Below, piece after piece: positions 21,282 through 43,343 of a stretch of 64,000 bases of DNA. How positions within the stretch are numbered: position 1 is the stretch's first letter; each line of letters opens with the position of its first letter. The stretch comes from a phage, in the sequence record PZ386947.1, one strand, 5' to 3'. The notes below the pieces were generated by a model. That model saw nothing but the letters and a program-made list of their open reading frames with translations, was not told the origin of the DNA and did not search any database. Position numbers and translations under genes: made by a program.

Positions 21282-21332
21282 ATTTGTTTTGATAGGGTAA
21301 TAATATCACACTACTACCCTGCTGTAAACAAT

Positions 21333-31575: not shown

Positions 31576-31992
31576 TTAAATGTAAATATTTTTGCCGTAA
31601 TACTTATACCAGTGTGGCTTCATTAAAATTTTTTCATCGAGTCGTTGTTGACTCAACTTAATAGCTGATTTGCATGGATTATAATCATTTTTCCATTCTA
31701 CTGGAATATCGCTGATGTCAGGAACTTCAGTATCTTTTATACTGAACCCGCGTTTTAAGCATTCCGTTATAATGTCCGATTGACGCTTTCGCAAAAATTC
31801 TAACTTATCGTAAAAGAAAGTAACATGACCAGAACCTAAAATAAATTTAGAAGATATTTTAAAATCTTTAACGCGCTTACCGTTTGCCACATGCTTACGA
31901 ACTATACCAAAAACACGCGGCAATTCACGGTATTCTGCGATTAAATGTTGATCAGCAAGTTCAGATACTAAAGTCAAATTAATACGAGTCAT
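31576..31992 (-). CDS. denV: endonuclease V (pyrimidine dimer DNA glycosylase)
   Basis: 138 aa; [29 protein letters not shown]... matches recalled T4 endo V with substitutions. Confidence 0.9.
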
Positions 31993-32015
31993 TTTATCCC
32001 TCCAAGTAACTGTGA

Positions 32016-32049
32016 ATATACTATCACAATTCTAGGAGAAAGTAAACAA
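32016..32049 (-). promoter_or_regulatory. candidate early promoter upstream of denV
   Basis: minus strand GTTTACtttctcctagaattgtgaTAGTAT; spacer about 19 nt. Confidence 0.4.
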
Positions 32050-32051
32050 CT

Positions 32052-32582
<531 letters not shown>

Positions 32583-36253: not shown

Positions 36254-36727
36254 TTATTTGATTTGTTTAGCAGACCAAATGCGATCTTTAATAATTTTTT
36301 GGATGTCTTCAACATACTCAAGAGAGTGAGCATGTGGATTATCTTTGAAACTATAAGCACGAGCTAGTTTTTGGCCTTCAGTTTTGATTACTAAAAGCTC
36401 TTTAAGGATAGCTTCATATTTGGAGATAATTCCTTTAACAATATTTTTTTCTTGTGCAGCTTTAGGATCTGCTTTAGGAGCAGGTTTACCCGAAGCCTTT
36501 GCAAAAGCAGCGCCAGTAGCAACTAAACTTTTCCAGGCCATACTAACTGCATTTCCCGTAAATCCTTCCGCTTTCATGTCGCGTGCGAACTGGAATCGCG
36601 ATTCATCAGAAGCATCTTTATAAGAATATTTACCCGCTGCAATGGCTGCTTTTGCGACAGCTTGAATTTCGGTGCTAGATGCTTCATTTAACACCGCTTC
36701 ATTTAAAAATTGAGTATATGATTTCAT
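36254..36727 (-). CDS. basic Ala/Lys-rich protein with internal-protein-like N-terminus (candidate head internal protein)
   Basis: 157 aa; N-terminus MKSYTQFLNEA resembles T4 IP capsid-targeting sequence MKTYQEFIAEA; TATAAATA late promoter 36 nt upstream. Confidence 0.55.
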   Translation of the reverse strand: MKSYTQFLNEAVLNEASSTEIQAVAKAAIAAGKYSYKDASDESRFQFARDMKAEGFTGNAVSMAWKSLVATGAAFAKASGKPAPKADPKAAQEKNIVKGIISKYEAILKELLVIKTEGQKLARAYSFKDNPHAHSLEYVEDIQKIIKDRIWSAKQIK

Positions 36728-36763
36728 CTTATTTCCTGTTTTAATTCGTGGTTTTAATATACT

Positions 36764-36771
36764 TATTTATA
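36764..36771 (-). promoter_or_regulatory. late promoter TATAAATA
   Basis: minus strand TATAAATA upstream of ORF 36254-36727. Confidence 0.45.
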
Positions 36772-36773
36772 CT

Positions 36774-36800
36774 AAAAAGCCCCAACCTTTCGGTCGGGGC
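36774..36800 (-). terminator. intrinsic terminator, copy 2 (identical to 36219-36245)
   Basis: same 27 nt hairpin plus U-run; closes the unit between ORF 37111-37461 and the IP-like gene. Confidence 0.6.
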
Positions 36801-37912: not shown

Positions 37913-38563
37913 TTATATATTGTTAATTTGATTTAGAATTCTTTTTGCTTGAGTATGACTTACGCCAATATGCTTAGCATATTTAGACAATTCGCCACGT
38001 TTAGAAAAATCATATAATTTAGAAATTTCTATTCTTCTTTTTCTTTCATCCGCAGAAACTTTTGCTTCGTTTGCTTTTGCTATTTTACGTTTAGCTTCTT
38101 GAGAATGAGTTTTACCAGCAAAGCCATTCTTCATTAATCCATTTGAAGACCATCCTTTTAATTTTCCGTTAGAATGTGCCTTTTTAACACCCAATGAAAT
38201 TAATTCGCGTTGCTGATCTGTCATAGGATAATTATTTATATGATCCCATCCACCTTCACCTCCAAGTTTTAAATTATACACATCTGGTCTATTTAAAAAC
38301 TCTTCTGTGACAATATTTTTCTCGGCTTCAAGCATAGATTCTTTATCGTCAAAATACTCTAATATTTCTTTAGAAAAATTTTCTATACCATATTTATCTT
38401 GGGCTCTTTTTAATAATTTACCAGAACCCATATATCCATCATCTAAATTTTCGGTAGAATGCACACCAATATAAATTTTATTATTAATTTTATTTGTTAT
38501 TTTATAAAGATAAAAATGCATATCAGTCCCTAATAAAGAACTGAGCGTCTCACGACGAGTCAT
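37913..38563 (-). CDS. GIY-YIG homing endonuclease (Seg-like) inside the tRNA cluster
   Basis: 216 aa; GIY-YIG core YLYKITNKINNKIYIGVHS...GYMGSGKLL; C-terminal HTH-like region; wedged between tRNA-Gly and tRNA-Ser. Confidence 0.8.
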   Translation of the reverse strand: MTRRETLSSLLGTDMHFYLYKITNKINNKIYIGVHSTENLDDGYMGSGKLLKRAQDKYGIENFSKEILEYFDDKESMLEAEKNIVTEEFLNRPDVYNLKLGGEGGWDHINNYPMTDQQRELISLGVKKAHSNGKLKGWSSNGLMKNGFAGKTHSQEAKRKIAKANEAKVSADERKRRIEISKLYDFSKRGELSKYAKHIGVSHTQAKRILNQINNI

Positions 38564-38567
38564 AAAT

Positions 38568-38641
<74 letters not shown>

Positions 38642-38646
38642 AAATT

Positions 38647-38733
38647 TGGTGCGAGAAGTGGGACTCGAACCCACAAGGAAATCATTCCGCAGCATTTTAA
38701 GTGCTGTGCCTTTACCAATTTGACCATTCTCGC
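38647..38733 (-). tRNA. tRNA-Leu (anticodon UAA), long variable arm
   Basis: matches recalled T4 tRNA-Leu (GCGAGAATGGTCAAATTGG...CTTAAAA...GGTTCGAGTCC...TCGCACCA). Confidence 0.9.
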
Positions 38734-38739
38734 GCTATA

Positions 38740-39372
38740 TTATTTATTACGTGAAAAAGACTGTTCTATCAATTCTGGACACTTTCGTTCTATCCATTTT
38801 CTAGCTTTTTGTGGGCTTATACCTATTATTTTAGCAGCTTTACTAACCCATCCAAATTTAGAATAATCGATTTTAACTAATTCTTCGTAAATTTCATCAG
38901 TTAAAATCTTTTCATTAATATTTACCAGTAAATGATATAATTTATTATCATTAGCAATTTTAATGAATCTTTTATAGTTTCCGCCTTTACTTAAACCTAA
39001 TGAAGTAATTGCAGATGATATAGTAGCCGAATTTAATAGTGCGTTTAAAATTTCTTCATCACTAACATTATAACGCTTTTTATTATTTTTAATATTTTTA
39101 CCAGCAAAAGTATCAGTTTGCGAATGGCAGTTTGGACATAATAATCTTAAATTTGATTTAAGATGATTTTTGTTATTTCCATCAATATGGTCTAATTGCA
39201 GAACAATATGCTTATTTTGCCATTTTGAAATTTTACAAATTGCACACTCATATGGAAAAATATTTTCTTTTATTATTTTGTCTTTCAGCTTTCCTGTACT
39301 AAAATTTGGATGTTTTCCTTCAAAAATTTCAGCTAATTTAGTATCCATAATATGATTCCCAATTATTAACAA
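38740..39372 (-). CDS. HNH homing endonuclease abutting tRNA-Leu
   Basis: 210 aa; CAIC...LQLDHIDGNNKNH...LRLLCPNCH HNH/zinc-finger core; C-terminal HTH-like segment; stop 7 nt from the tRNA-Leu 5' end. Confidence 0.75.
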   Translation of the reverse strand: MLIIGNHIMDTKLAEIFEGKHPNFSTGKLKDKIIKENIFPYECAICKISKWQNKHIVLQLDHIDGNNKNHLKSNLRLLCPNCHSQTDTFAGKNIKNNKKRYNVSDEEILNALLNSATISSAITSLGLSKGGNYKRFIKIANDNKLYHLLVNINEKILTDEIYEELVKIDYSKFGWVSKAAKIIGISPQKARKWIERKCPELIEQSFSRNK

Positions 39373-39963: not shown

Positions 39964-40253
39964 TTGCTCACCATATTAATGTAAGTATATTCAATACATT
40001 CAAGACCCAAAGGATTCTTGAAAATATCATATTCAAGAGGACCTTTTTCTGTTTCAATAAAGAAATCAAAATTTACTGTATTAAATTTACGGTCTTCCTT
40101 CACTAATTTAACCTGAGAAGATGAACGGTCAATGTAAACCTTTTCAACTTCAAAACATGTTAAAACGCCATAATCATCAATCAAGGCTTTAGCCGCGTCT
40201 TGATCATATTTATATCCATTTTCAATTGACGATACTTTAGCATAAAGAATCAT
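39960..40253 (-). CDS. hypothetical protein (97 aa)
   Basis: ORF track. Confidence 0.5.
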   Translation of the reverse strand: MILYAKVSSIENGYKYDQDAAKALIDDYGVLTCFEVEKVYIDRSSSQVKLVKEDRKFNTVNFDFFIETEKGPLEYDIFKNPLGLECIEYTYINMVSK

Positions 40254-40255
40254 TA

Positions 40256-40675
40256 TCAGCCTTCATCAACAATAGTATGAGTGTGGGCATTTACAATTTG
40301 CCACCAATCAAAGCGATTAGAACCACACATCGGTTTGTTTTCATTTTCTTTGATAATATCACGAAGTTCATCTTCGGTAGCGGCTTTCGCGATTAAATCA
40401 GCATATCCACCGCGAGGATAATAATTATCACCTGCAAAAAGTAAAAAGTTCGGTTTAATATTATTGAACTCTTCAAGAGTAATAACTTTTCCTGTCGGTT
40501 GAACAATCTCTACATATTTATATCCTAATTTTTGAGCAGCATCTACTGCTTCAAGCAAAGTATCATGAGCCCATCCAATTTGACAACCTGGCTTTTCAGA
40601 TGGATTAGCCTGATAATCCGCGTACACTTTATACATTCTATTCACCTTTAGAAATTTTATCCATAACGATAGCAA
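40256..40675 (-). CDS. hypothetical protein (139 aa or shorter)
   Basis: ORF track; start may be the internal ATG MYKVYADY. Confidence 0.5.
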   Translation of the reverse strand: MLSLWIKFLKVNRMYKVYADYQANPSEKPGCQIGWAHDTLLEAVDAAQKLGYKYVEIVQPTGKVITLEEFNNIKPNFLLFAGDNYYPRGGYADLIAKAATEDELRDIIKENENKPMCGSNRFDWWQIVNAHTHTIVDEG

Positions 40676-40823
40676 TTAAACCAATTAAAAATGCTACTAC
40701 AAGTGAAAAAACATTTTCTGCTGTAGTTAATAATCCGCATATAAATCCAACAAACATTGAAAAACTAAAAGCAGAAGCAGAAATTGCAATAGCAACATTT
40801 CGAATTAATTCACAACGTTTCAT
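40638..40823 (-). CDS. small membrane protein
   Basis: ORF track 40638-40892 trimmed to MKRCELIRN...; hydrophobic; upstream part is a translated promoter. Confidence 0.4.
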   Translation of the reverse strand: MKRCELIRNVAIAISASAFSFSMFVGFICGLLTTAENVFSLVVAFLIGLIAIVMDKISKGE

Positions 40824-40849
40824 TTTATTCTCCTCAGTAGCTGATAGGG

Positions 40850-40882
40850 TAATAGTATCACTACTAAAACCCAATGTAAACA
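40850..40882 (-). promoter_or_regulatory. early promoter, copy 1 of a 4-copy repeat module
   Basis: minus strand GTTTACattgggttttagtagtgaTACTATtaccctatcag. Confidence 0.55.
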
Positions 40883-40884
40883 AT

Positions 40885-41109
40885 TTATTCAACGCCAGCG
40901 GCTTTCAAAAGTTTCTTAAGATTGGCAACACCTTGAGCAGAAAATGTGACCTTGCCACCTTTTTCACTGATAGAACCAACCAATTTAGCAAGTTTATCAT
41001 TAGGAATTTTTTTAAAATCAGCCAATGTTCCATCAAAGGTTTTTGAAACAAAAGGCAGTTCGTCTTCGCGTCTTTTAGCTTCTACAATAAATTCTTGATA
41101 TGTTTTCAT
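40885..41109 (-). CDS. candidate head internal protein (CTS-bearing)
   Basis: begins MKTYQEFIVEA, matching the T4 internal-protein capsid-targeting sequence; GGAAA SD; own promoter copy upstream. Confidence 0.6.
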   Translation of the reverse strand: MKTYQEFIVEAKRREDELPFVSKTFDGTLADFKKIPNDKLAKLVGSISEKGGKVTFSAQGVANLKKLLKAAGVE

Positions 41110-41143
41110 TTTAGTTTCCATTTGAGTGTTTGTTTTGATAGGG

Positions 41144-41176
41144 TAATAGTATCACTACTAAAACCCAATGTAAACA
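41144..41176 (-). promoter_or_regulatory. early promoter, copy 2 of repeat module
   Basis: minus strand GTTTACattgggttttagtagtgaTACTATtaccctatcaaaac. Confidence 0.6.
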
Positions 41177-41193
41177 ACTTTGTGAAAAATTTA

Positions 41194-41481
41194 TTACAAA
41201 AGATTTTTAGCAATAATCTTGAGATGTGCCGCAGAAATGTGTTTAGCTTTAAACAACGCAGTTTCTTCAGCAGGAGAGATAACGATTGTAGCACCATCCT
41301 TTTTAGCAGACCACCCATCGCCTAGGTAAACAGTACCTTTGATTTCTTCGCCATCAACCAGACTAATCATTGGTTTACCTTCTCGTCCTTTATTTGCTTT
41401 AATAACTTCAGAAGTAAGAGTAGCTTCGGTAATAGTAGAAACCGGGGTAGTTGTAGAAGTAAATTCTTTGAAAGTTTTCAT
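41194..41481 (-). CDS. candidate head internal protein (CTS-like N-terminus)
   Basis: 95 aa; begins MKTFKEFTSTTTPVSTITE; GGAAA SD; own promoter copy upstream. Confidence 0.55.
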   Translation of the reverse strand: MKTFKEFTSTTTPVSTITEATLTSEVIKANKGREGKPMISLVDGEEIKGTVYLGDGWSAKKDGATIVISPAEETALFKAKHISAAHLKIIAKNLL

Positions 41482-41509
41482 TTTATTTTCCTAATTAATT
41501 TTGATAGGG

Positions 41510-41542
41510 TAATAGTATCACAACTAAAACCCTATGTAAACA
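41510..41542 (-). promoter_or_regulatory. early promoter, copy 3 of repeat module
   Basis: minus strand GTTTACatagggttttagttgtgaTACTATtaccctatcaa. Confidence 0.6.
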
Positions 41543-41553
41543 ACTTTGTGAAA

Positions 41554-41811
41554 TTATTTTAAATCTTCTAATCGTTTCTTCATCTTAGAACCGTTCTTAG
41601 CGATTTCGCCTGCATCAGAGCATAATGCTAAAAGCGCTTTAACTTTAGTTTGGTCTCCTTTAAAAGATGAAGGATCAACAGCAGCAGCAAGTTCTTTAAT
41701 ACGAGAGAAAAGACGCTCAGCTTCAGCTAAAGCCATTCCAAGCTTTACTTCCATACCGCGGGAAGATTCAGTAATAGTAGTTTTTGTAGCAAACTCTTTG
41801 AAAGTTTTCAT
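41554..41811 (-). CDS. candidate head internal protein (CTS-like N-terminus)
   Basis: 85 aa; begins MKTFKEFATKTTITE; own promoter copy upstream. Confidence 0.55.
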   Translation of the reverse strand: MKTFKEFATKTTITESSRGMEVKLGMALAEAERLFSRIKELAAAVDPSSFKGDQTKVKALLALCSDAGEIAKNGSKMKKRLEDLK

Positions 41812-41839
41812 TTTATTTTCCTAATTAATTTTGATGAGG

Positions 41840-41872
41840 TAATAGTATCACTACCTCATCAGTATGTAAACA
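41840..41872 (-). promoter_or_regulatory. early promoter, copy 4 of repeat module
   Basis: minus strand GTTTACatactgatgaggtagtgaTACTATtacctcatcaa. Confidence 0.6.
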
Positions 41873-41883
41873 ACTTTGTGAAA

Positions 41884-42568
<685 letters not shown>

Positions 42569-42569
<1 letters not shown>

Positions 42570-43294
42570 TATAGTACCTTTAGTGTATTTTTAATTTTAG
42601 AAAAAAGTTCTTCAAGAGAACCATCGTTTGTAATTACTAAATCGCCATCACGAATTGGCAATCCAGCTTCTGTAATATGTGTATCATTGGATTTTTGACC
42701 AGGACGAACTACATGAATTACTGTAGCACCCATCGCCCTAGCCGCATCCATTTCATGATCTTGACGGGTATCAGGAACGATATAATAATCATAACCTGAG
42801 TTAAATTTATCAAGATAATCTAAAGCAAATAATTTTACCCAGTACATGCGGTCGAAGTTATTAACAATCAAATCCGTACCTAGGGCTTGCATCAGACGAC
42901 GGACTGACCATTGATCTTCAATATTATTTATAACGTCAATAATCTTGTTAAATGCTACGGAATTAACTGATTCTTGTCCTTCGTCATCAAAAACAAACAC
43001 ACCCTTAATTGGGCTTTTACCGTTAAGATAGCAAAATGCTTGTTCCATAATCGTGATTACTTCTGATTTAGTCAGATTTAAATTAGTCTCACGATCATAG
43101 TCAATTCCTTCAAACTCTTTACGAGTTAAGCAAGGATAGTCAGTGTTTGCTGCAAATACTCCCCATGCATAAGCCAATGCATCCTTAATAGGACCAGCAA
43201 GTTGGTATTTAACTGCAGAATAATTGCTCATGATAAAATCAGCAGTAGTATCTTTTCCACTACGCTTTACACCGCTTAAAAAGATTAGTTTCAT
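42569..43294 (-). CDS. 1: deoxynucleoside monophosphate kinase
   Basis: 241 aa from ATG MKLIFLSGVKRSGKDTTADF...; matches recalled T4 gp1 and length. Confidence 0.9.
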
Positions 43295-43343
43295 GTGTTT
43301 CTCCTCAAATTTAATTAAGATTATAACACACAAAACTGAAGCA

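Follow-up and report, generated by a model that had tools for sequence, protein, structure and literature searches.

How three small genes that begin alike and then diverge completely come to lie side by side in a phage genome, and what their products do, is the question raised by a minus-strand region of phage sequence record PZ386947.1, of which a stretch of 64,000 nucleotides (the window) was analyzed. An initial annotation, made from the sequence alone, had read this region as a tandem array of capsid-targeted internal proteins, each behind its own copy of a repeated early-promoter module. The region is very probably the ipI-type internal protein (IP) locus situated between 57B (Acb1) and trna.4, in a phage that is essentially Shigella phage CM8, with three independent cassettes whose modules and leaders have been shuffled by recombination. 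It has 100% identity to CM8 (Tequatrovirus) over 1401 bp, and the RefSeq record of that phage names the three genes Ip5, IpI, and Ip8. All three are located between 57B and trna.4, which is the place of ipI in T4 and one of the two polymorphic IP loci.

In order of transcription, these minus-strand genes encode the precursors of Ip5 (85 aa, 41554-41811), IPI (95 aa, 41194-41481), and Ip8 (74 aa, 40885-41109). Their N-terminal leaders, MKTFKEFATKTTITE in Ip5, MKTFKEFTSTTTPVSTITE in IPI, and MKTYQEFIVE in Ip8, all begin with the pattern MKT(Y/F)(Q/K)EF of a capsid-targeting sequence (CTS), and when the entire 64-kb window was scanned for open reading frames (ORFs) initiated by MK[ST][YF]x[EKT]F, none besides these three was returned, in agreement with the three leader-bearing genes first proposed. 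The mature parts that follow are mutually unrelated, as had also been claimed, with E values of at least 2 in an all-against-all BLASTP comparison. Each leader is closed by (I/L)-x-E and a small residue, the established recognition motif of the T4 prohead protease, which reads IVE10 before A in Ip8, ITE19 before A in IPI, and ITE15 before S in Ip5. The mature products of all three genes are small and basic, with masses of 6.9-8.0 kDa and isoelectric points (pI) of 9.0-9.8, and PHROG families for internal head or internal virion proteins match all three genes.

The middle gene is T4 IPI itself. Its product matches the Pfam family PF11634 (IPI_T4) over residues 20-95 with an E value of 7.3e-54 and 180 bits (cut-off 25), and the same residues share 100% identity with residues 1-76 of PDB 2JUB chain A, the nuclear magnetic resonance structure of mature T4 IPI*. 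Because the solved mature chain begins exactly at residue 20, the processing site of IPI is set after I-T-E19. Neither Ip5 nor Ip8 matched PF11634. Ip5 belongs to phrog_3499, labeled internal head protein (E 1e-48), is named Ip5 in phages CM8, RB14, PP01, and RB70, and has a predicted cleavage after E15 (I-T-E) that would leave a mature form of approximately 7.5 kDa with a pI of 9.5. Ip8 belongs to phrog_8765, labeled internal virion protein (E 2e-25) with Ip8 in its RefSeq note, and predicted cleavage after E10 (I-V-E) would give a mature form of approximately 6.9 kDa and pI 9.8. Homologs of Ip8 are present in 108 phage records from Tequatrovirus, Dhakavirus, Jiaodavirus, and Citrobacter phage Merlin. 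Both families are narrow, comprising five clusters for Ip5 and 15 for Ip8, exclusively from T4-like phages, and body conservation within them is high at 88-94% mean column identity. AlphaFold modeled Ip5 as a helical hairpin (mean predicted local distance difference test score, pLDDT, of 72) and Ip8 as a small α/β domain (mean pLDDT 69). A search of the PDB with the Ip5 model retrieved generic helical hairpins only, with E values of at least 0.6, and PDB sequence searches with Ip5 and Ip8 gave nothing significant. Of the structural check on the bodies that the initial annotation had suggested, the part concerning IPI is answered by a solved fold, and the folds predicted for Ip5 and Ip8 were uninformative.

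Four copies of a 45-nt direct repeat with 78-100% identity (40842-40886, 41136-41180, 41502-41546, and 41832-41876) mark the intergenic modules of the locus. As had been noted, all four carry GTTTAC and TACTAT with an 18-nt spacer, equivalent to TTTACA and TACTAT at a spacing of 17 nt with TG upstream of the -10 element, and every module is intergenic and ends with a Shine-Dalgarno sequence and start codon, in keeping with an early promoter. Module 1 occupies the 57B-Ip5 intergenic region (41812-41883), with its -35 element GTTTAC at 41866-41871 and its -10 element TACTAT at 41842-41847. Its inverted arms of 10 bp, TGATGAGGTA (41852-41861) and TACCTCATCA (41832-41841), are followed by the Shine-Dalgarno sequence TAGGAAAATAAA immediately before the ATG; in T4, an identical module precedes ipI. 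Module 2 lies between Ip5 and IPI (41482-41553, promoter 41512-41541) and has the stem ATAGGGT/ACCCTAT, module 3 lies between IPI and Ip8 (41110-41193, promoter 41146-41175) and has a GGGT..ACCC stem with an inner TAGTA/TACTA stem, and module 4 lies between Ip8 and trna.4 (40824-40884, promoter 40852-40881) with the same stem as module 3; all four are read from the minus strand. Each IP gene does follow its own module, as proposed; the fourth module precedes, and would drive, the trna.4-like gene and not an internal protein. Since that gene has no capsid-targeting leader, n cassettes are accompanied by n+1 modules.

The homology extends beyond the promoters. Modules 1 and 2 fall within a 123-nt repeat of 88% identity (41777-41899 and 41447-41569) that begins in the final codons of the gene upstream (..DLK-stop in the case of 57B) and continues through the ribosome-binding site to approximately 11 codons of the leader, and the module-3 counterpart (41081-41203) is only 61% identical. 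A 40-nt module pattern has three matches, where 0.00 are expected; for the shorter core GTTTAC-N18-TAYWAT, 14 matches were counted in the window compared to 0.09 expected, and all of them lie on the minus strand. This core is the general T4 early-promoter pattern, and the locus-specific part of the module is the spacer and stem sequence alone. A generic σ70 scan of the region found no enrichment, with 34 matches against 27.8 expected, and the T4-type pattern alone was informative.

An inverted repeat had been reported in two of the modules; it was found in all four, as a stem-loop lying between the -35 element and overlapping the -10 element. The 44-nt cores fold at -17.4, -13.7, -11.9, and -11.7 kcal/mol for modules 1 to 4, respectively, compared to means of approximately -4 kcal/mol for shuffled sequences (z -6.1, -4.9, -4.0, and -3.1), and stretches of 60-71 nt that include flanking sequence gave z values of -5.7, -3.8, -3.0, and -1.8. 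Two of the stem types, GATGAGGTA/TACCTCATC and GATAGGGTA/TACCCTATC, differ by two compensatory pairs, and the register of the stem varies with module type (i+j = 79, 73, or 74), so that folding was assessed per module. An Rfam scan of 40000-42600 at E <= 1 returned no family.

Comparison with related phages addresses how the cassettes came together. The 57B-trna.4 interval was taken from 14 other phages and parsed for leader-initiated ORFs and promoter modules, and the comparison across T-even genomes that had been suggested as a check showed different cassette sets in this interval. It contains ipI alone in T4, NBG1, phiD1, and Manna; Ip5 alone in ime09, PP01, RB68, and ESh25; Ip5 and ipI in RB14; ipI and Ip6 in JK38 and teqdroes; Ip6 alone in pSe_SNUABM_01; ipI and a 102-aa IP in LF82-2 (Mosigvirus); a 69-aa IP, an Ip8 homolog, and Ip9 in IME08 (Dhakavirus); and an Ip8 homolog alone in a Klebsiella Jiaodavirus. 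Among 750 matching records, the arrangement of Ip5, ipI, and Ip8 found in the window is shared with CM8 and T4_ev240 only. In pairwise alignments with T4, JK38, and RB14, every breakpoint falls in a module or in the first ~23 nt of the leader, and the modules flank the genes that vary between relatives and contain the insertion and deletion boundaries. The module that lies ahead of Ip5 here (module 1) lies ahead of ipI in T4, module 2 of RB14 is a hybrid whose 5' and 3' arms belong to different stem types, and chimeric leaders occur in Ip6, which begins with MKTFKEF or MKTYQEF, and in Ip5, which carries ..ATKTTITE or ..ATETIITE. These comparative breakpoints support cassette shuffling by recombination between the module and leader repeats, as judged from aligned sequences, and with it the suggestion that the modules serve as recombination substrates.

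The locus of IME08 (HM071924.1; L016 1713-2500) contains three leader-bearing ORFs at the same position. The first, of 69 aa and beginning MKTYNEFLTEA, has no module separating it from 57B, whose stop codon it overlaps, and the second is an unannotated Ip8 homolog with 81% identity; only the third, Ip9, is annotated.

An array of this kind could also arise through tandem duplication of one ancestral IP gene, with the bodies diverging in place and the repeats being leftovers of duplication and not active recombination substrates. The 123-nt module and leader region shared at 88% by the Ip5 and IPI cassettes is compatible with such a history, and the GenBank record of CM8 can be taken as a sign that tandem duplication can happen at this locus. 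However, the bodies have no detectable similarity, and their folds differ, with a predicted helical hairpin in Ip5, a predicted α/β domain in Ip8, and the solved fold of IPI*. The same bodies also recur at 80-100% identity, differently combined and in other positions, in phages with ~95-97% identical flanks, the hybrid modules and chimeric leaders indicate recent exchange, and the pattern of presence and absence already suggests that the bodies are incongruent with the 57B and trna.4 flanks. Duplication in place is therefore very improbable as the origin of the three genes, and shuffling of independent cassettes is preferred.

The GenBank/RefSeq sequence of CM8 (NC_054939.1 71366-73313; L001 3524-5471) differs from the window by an extra 974-bp tandem copy of segment 41123-42096, which comprises the C-terminal part of 57B, Ip5, and IPI. 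This copy is absent from the window, which is otherwise identical, and it carries eight clustered substitutions in the last codons of IPI (window 41200-41223; AAHFKINDRILL versus AAHLKIIAKNLL). Microhomology was sought at the duplication junction and none was found; the extra copy may be a real duplication or an assembly artifact.

The stems themselves admit another reading, in which the inverted repeat across the -10 element is mainly regulatory, acting as an operator for a DNA-binding protein or, in the form of a hairpin in RNA or DNA, attenuating read-through or adjusting promoter strength, and recombination is a by-product. The modules of related phages also fold into stem-loops, with other, distinct stems in Mosigvirus and Dhakavirus, and across four genera the structure is kept while sequence and register change, which suggests selection on the structure itself. 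In the literature, stem-loops of the PeSL elements of phage RB49 terminate transcription in a reporter assay. A comparable hairpin is present at just one (~21.3 kb, -12.9 kcal/mol) of the ten further early promoters of the window, and those of the remaining nine are weaker (-1.4 to -8.2 kcal/mol). However, no U-tract follows the stems of the IP locus, and to our knowledge no protein that binds them has been described. The T-even IP stems are also regarded as weaker, more AT-rich analogs of PeSL stems (Arbiol 2010), and a regulatory role is compatible with a role in recombination and does not exclude it. A regulatory contribution of the stems is thus possible, and their being primarily regulatory is unlikely.

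The comparable element, at ~21286-21329 on the minus strand, consists of the early promoter GTTTACAGCAGGGTAGTAGTGTGATATTATTACCCTATCAAAAC with a stem-loop across the -10 element whose 3' arm, TACCCTATC, is the same as in the IP modules, making it a PeSL-like module that lies apart from the IP locus.

Taken as a unit, a cassette of this locus would consist of an early-promoter module whose -10 element is surrounded by an inverted repeat, a Shine-Dalgarno sequence, a CTS-coding leader, and an unrelated small basic body. Host RNA polymerase would transcribe each cassette from its own early promoter, as the promoter consensus and the identity to the T4 ipI promoter region suggest. By analogy with T4, where this step is established for IPs, the CTS would direct the precursor into the scaffolding core of the prohead, and the prohead protease would cut after the Glu of (I/L)-x-E, a site supported for IPI and predicted for Ip5 (E15) and Ip8 (E10). 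Basic products of approximately 7-8 kDa would then be injected with the DNA. IPI* would block the GmrSD type IV enzyme that would otherwise cut glucosyl-hydroxymethylcytosine DNA, the activity established for the IPI of T4, which has the same mature sequence. The ~45-120 bp of near-identical flanking sequence, formed by module and leader, would permit homologous recombination within a genome or between co-infecting phages to add, delete, or swap cassettes, and a swapped cassette would keep its own promoter and packaging signal.

What Ip5 and Ip8 do after injection is the second part of the question. The initial annotation had proposed the three cargos as candidates for uncharacterized injected anti-defense effectors. 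An anti-defense role stands for the middle gene, which is IPI and is already characterized; Ip5 and Ip8 belong to named families, and ip4-10 have already been assayed with no reproducible match to a target. T4 IPs are packaged by means of the CTS, and IPI*, once injected, inhibits the type IV restriction enzyme GmrS/GmrD. IPIII is required for infection of ECOR17 (Srikant et al. 2022), and each of the T4 proteins Ip1, Ip2, and Ip3 inhibits a different GmrSD (Silas et al. 2025). An injected anti-defense role for IP cargos is the existing working hypothesis of the field and has been partly tested. By analogy with T4 Ip1, Ip2, and Ip3, Ip5 and Ip8 would most likely neutralize other first-line host defenses. 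The more specific proposal that one or both are injected inhibitors of defenses other than the GmrSD variants tested so far, possibly of a class other than type IV restriction, is put forward tentatively, at slightly less than even odds.

Ip5 and Ip8 might instead be packaged with no anti-defense role, as basic counter-ions, DNA-condensing head filler, or dispensable passengers. Both are small and basic (pI 9.5 and 9.8), lysines of internal proteins touch packaged DNA according to the literature, and ip4-10 had no reproducible activity on the GmrSD systems tested. However, all three properly tested T4 IPs are specific GmrSD inhibitors, filler would not need distinct folded bodies, and the bodies are conserved within each family (88-94%) yet patchy across phages, as expected of host-specific accessory functions. 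A role as mere filler is therefore judged improbable, somewhat more so than a primarily regulatory stem, and inhibition of host defenses is favored for Ip5 and Ip8.

Several observations weigh against a locus of shuffled cassettes, each expressed from its own module and delivering an injected anti-defense protein. The folds of Ip5 and Ip8 are of moderate model confidence and lack informative structural neighbors in the PDB search of the AlphaFold models. Packaging, cleavage, and injection of these two proteins are predictions from the leader and the cleavage motif. A classical terminator role for the stems was considered and is not supported, since no U-run follows them. The locus could also be fed from upstream by a late-promoter motif, TATAAATA, within gene 1 (42925-42932). 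Finally, assays of ip4-10 against further GmrSD variants gave no reproducible inhibition, and the apparent hits that failed to repeat included ip8 with CLS_018/019 (Silas et al. 2025).

The locus is embedded in a minus-strand neighborhood at 40.6-43.3 kb that comprises, in transcription order, gene 1, 57A, 57B, the three IP ORFs, a trna.4-like ORF, and a trna.3-like ORF. Gene 1 encodes a deoxynucleoside monophosphate kinase (42569-43333, minus) and is followed by 57A (42339-42569, minus). The conserved left anchor of the locus, 57B (41884-42342, minus), is annotated 57B in T4, RB14, and CM8, and its product matches PF23474 (Acb1) with an E value of 7.5e-60 and 201 bits (cut-off 27). Acb1 is a cyclic-nucleotide phosphodiesterase acting against CBASS, the cyclic oligonucleotide-based antiphage signaling system, and the RefSeq name for 57B is still RNA ligase. 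The identification of 57B as Acb1 therefore places the IP cassettes directly downstream of another anti-defense gene. The conserved right anchor is the trna.4-like gene (40638-40823, minus; phrog_1692, E 6e-35), which encodes a predicted membrane protein of 61 aa, has no capsid-targeting leader, and is annotated Trna.4 in T4, RB14, and PP01; the trna.3-like ORF lies at 40256-40636 on the minus strand. Like Ip5 and Ip8, the trna.4-like and trna.3-like ORFs had no Pfam match exceeding the threshold.

Two homing-endonuclease ORFs are found among the tRNA genes immediately downstream of the locus on the minus strand (37913-39372), one GIY-YIG/SegB-like (37913-38563) and one HNH (38740-39372), and the set of tRNA and endonuclease genes in this area varies among the related phages that were retrieved. 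The second IP locus of T4 is that of ipII and ipIII between denV and e. In the window, the denV-e interval (31576-32546) has no IP genes, with denV at 31576-31992 and lysozyme e at 32052-32546 separated by a gap of 59 bp.

A further candidate lies outside both of these loci. A 157-aa ORF on the minus strand (36254-36727; phrog_2280, RB32ORF132c-like) is annotated as hypothetical everywhere and has homologs in 512 phage records by tblastn; T4 is not among the 40 matches listed. Its N-terminus, MKSYTQFLNEA, resembles a capsid-targeting leader with an L-x-E site, and its homologs start with MKTYNEFLNES, MKTYNEFL, MKSYAEFL, or MKFKEFLAEAS. In place of an early-promoter module, the upstream sequence (36728-36800) has the late-promoter motif TATAAATA (36764-36771) and a hairpin with a T-run. 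This ORF may encode an unrecognized, late-expressed head-internal protein outside the two canonical IP loci.

The architecture of the ipI-type locus and the recombination model for it have been known since 1994, and nothing in the window alters the established picture. The locus is a textbook case of a T-even palette of injected anti-restriction proteins diversified by the shuffling of cassettes that combine promoter, packaging signal, and cargo. The present comparison adds base-level detail in the form of breakpoints in modules and leaders, examples of hybrid modules and of chimeric leaders, and compensatory changes of the stems from genus to genus. The host targets of Ip5 and Ip8 are a question already recognized in the field, and finding them would extend the arms race described for Ip1-3 and GmrSD. 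Should one or both proteins prove to be inhibitors of other defenses, the three cassettes and the adjacent Acb1 would form a compact multi-target anti-defense island, with two targets that could be found by host-range screens.

Among known systems, integron cassette arrays resemble this locus by functional analogy only, in that small accessory genes are exchangeable, arranged in tandem, and bounded by repeated recombination sites. Integrons differ in having an integrase, attC/attI sites, and a single common promoter, whereas general homologous recombination and one promoter per cassette would serve here; an integron-like system was rejected, as no integrase or att site was found. The closest protein likeness is to T4 IPI* (2JUB), with which the IPI of this locus shares identical residues 20-95 and the same cleaved leader of 19 residues, with no difference for IPI, whereas Ip5 and Ip8 have only the leader in common with it. 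T4 Ip2 and Ip3 (ipII/ipIII), specific GmrSD inhibitors, share the same leader and the same presumed route of packaging and injection, but are encoded at a different locus (denV-e) and have unrelated bodies.

At the level of the modules, the PeSLs of RB49/phi1, PST/T4, and nt-1/KVP40 likewise unite an early promoter and a stem-loop with a Shine-Dalgarno sequence and the start codon in an intergenic cassette; the genes that they flank are variable, and insertion and deletion boundaries coincide with them. The PST/T4 PeSL promoter consensus, TTTACW-N17-TAYWAT, was given by Comeau 2014, who restated the recombination hypothesis of 1994, and all four modules of this locus fit it. The modules differ from the PeSLs of RB49/phi1 in having a T4-type promoter and an AT-rich stem in place of a σ70-perfect promoter and a polyG/polyC stem, and they are not homologous to them. 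Arbiol 2010 similarly described the T-even IP elements as T4 early promoters with weaker, AT-rich stem-loops, analogs and not homologs of the RB49 PeSLs, that are maybe responsible for IP shuffling; promoter and terminator activity has been shown for the RB49 PeSLs only. A further difference from PeSLs is that the homology block here reaches into the coding leader.

The nearest counterpart is the set of T-even IP loci of Repoila, Tétart, Bouet and Krisch (1994; EMBO J 13:4181), as represented in Arbiol 2010 and Comeau 2014, where a polymorphic IP locus with a conserved leader, a repeated early promoter with stem-loop, and recombinational shuffling is described. According to these accounts, those loci occupy the same position between 57B and trna.4, encode a conserved leader of approximately 10 aa, have each ORF flanked on both sides by the repeated early promoter, whose -35 and -10 elements enclose a stem-loop, and vary between phages in the number, order, and identity of their ORFs. 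As far as the locus is represented there, the one in the window does not differ from it in kind, and is distinguished by its particular three-cassette set of Ip5, IPI, and Ip8.

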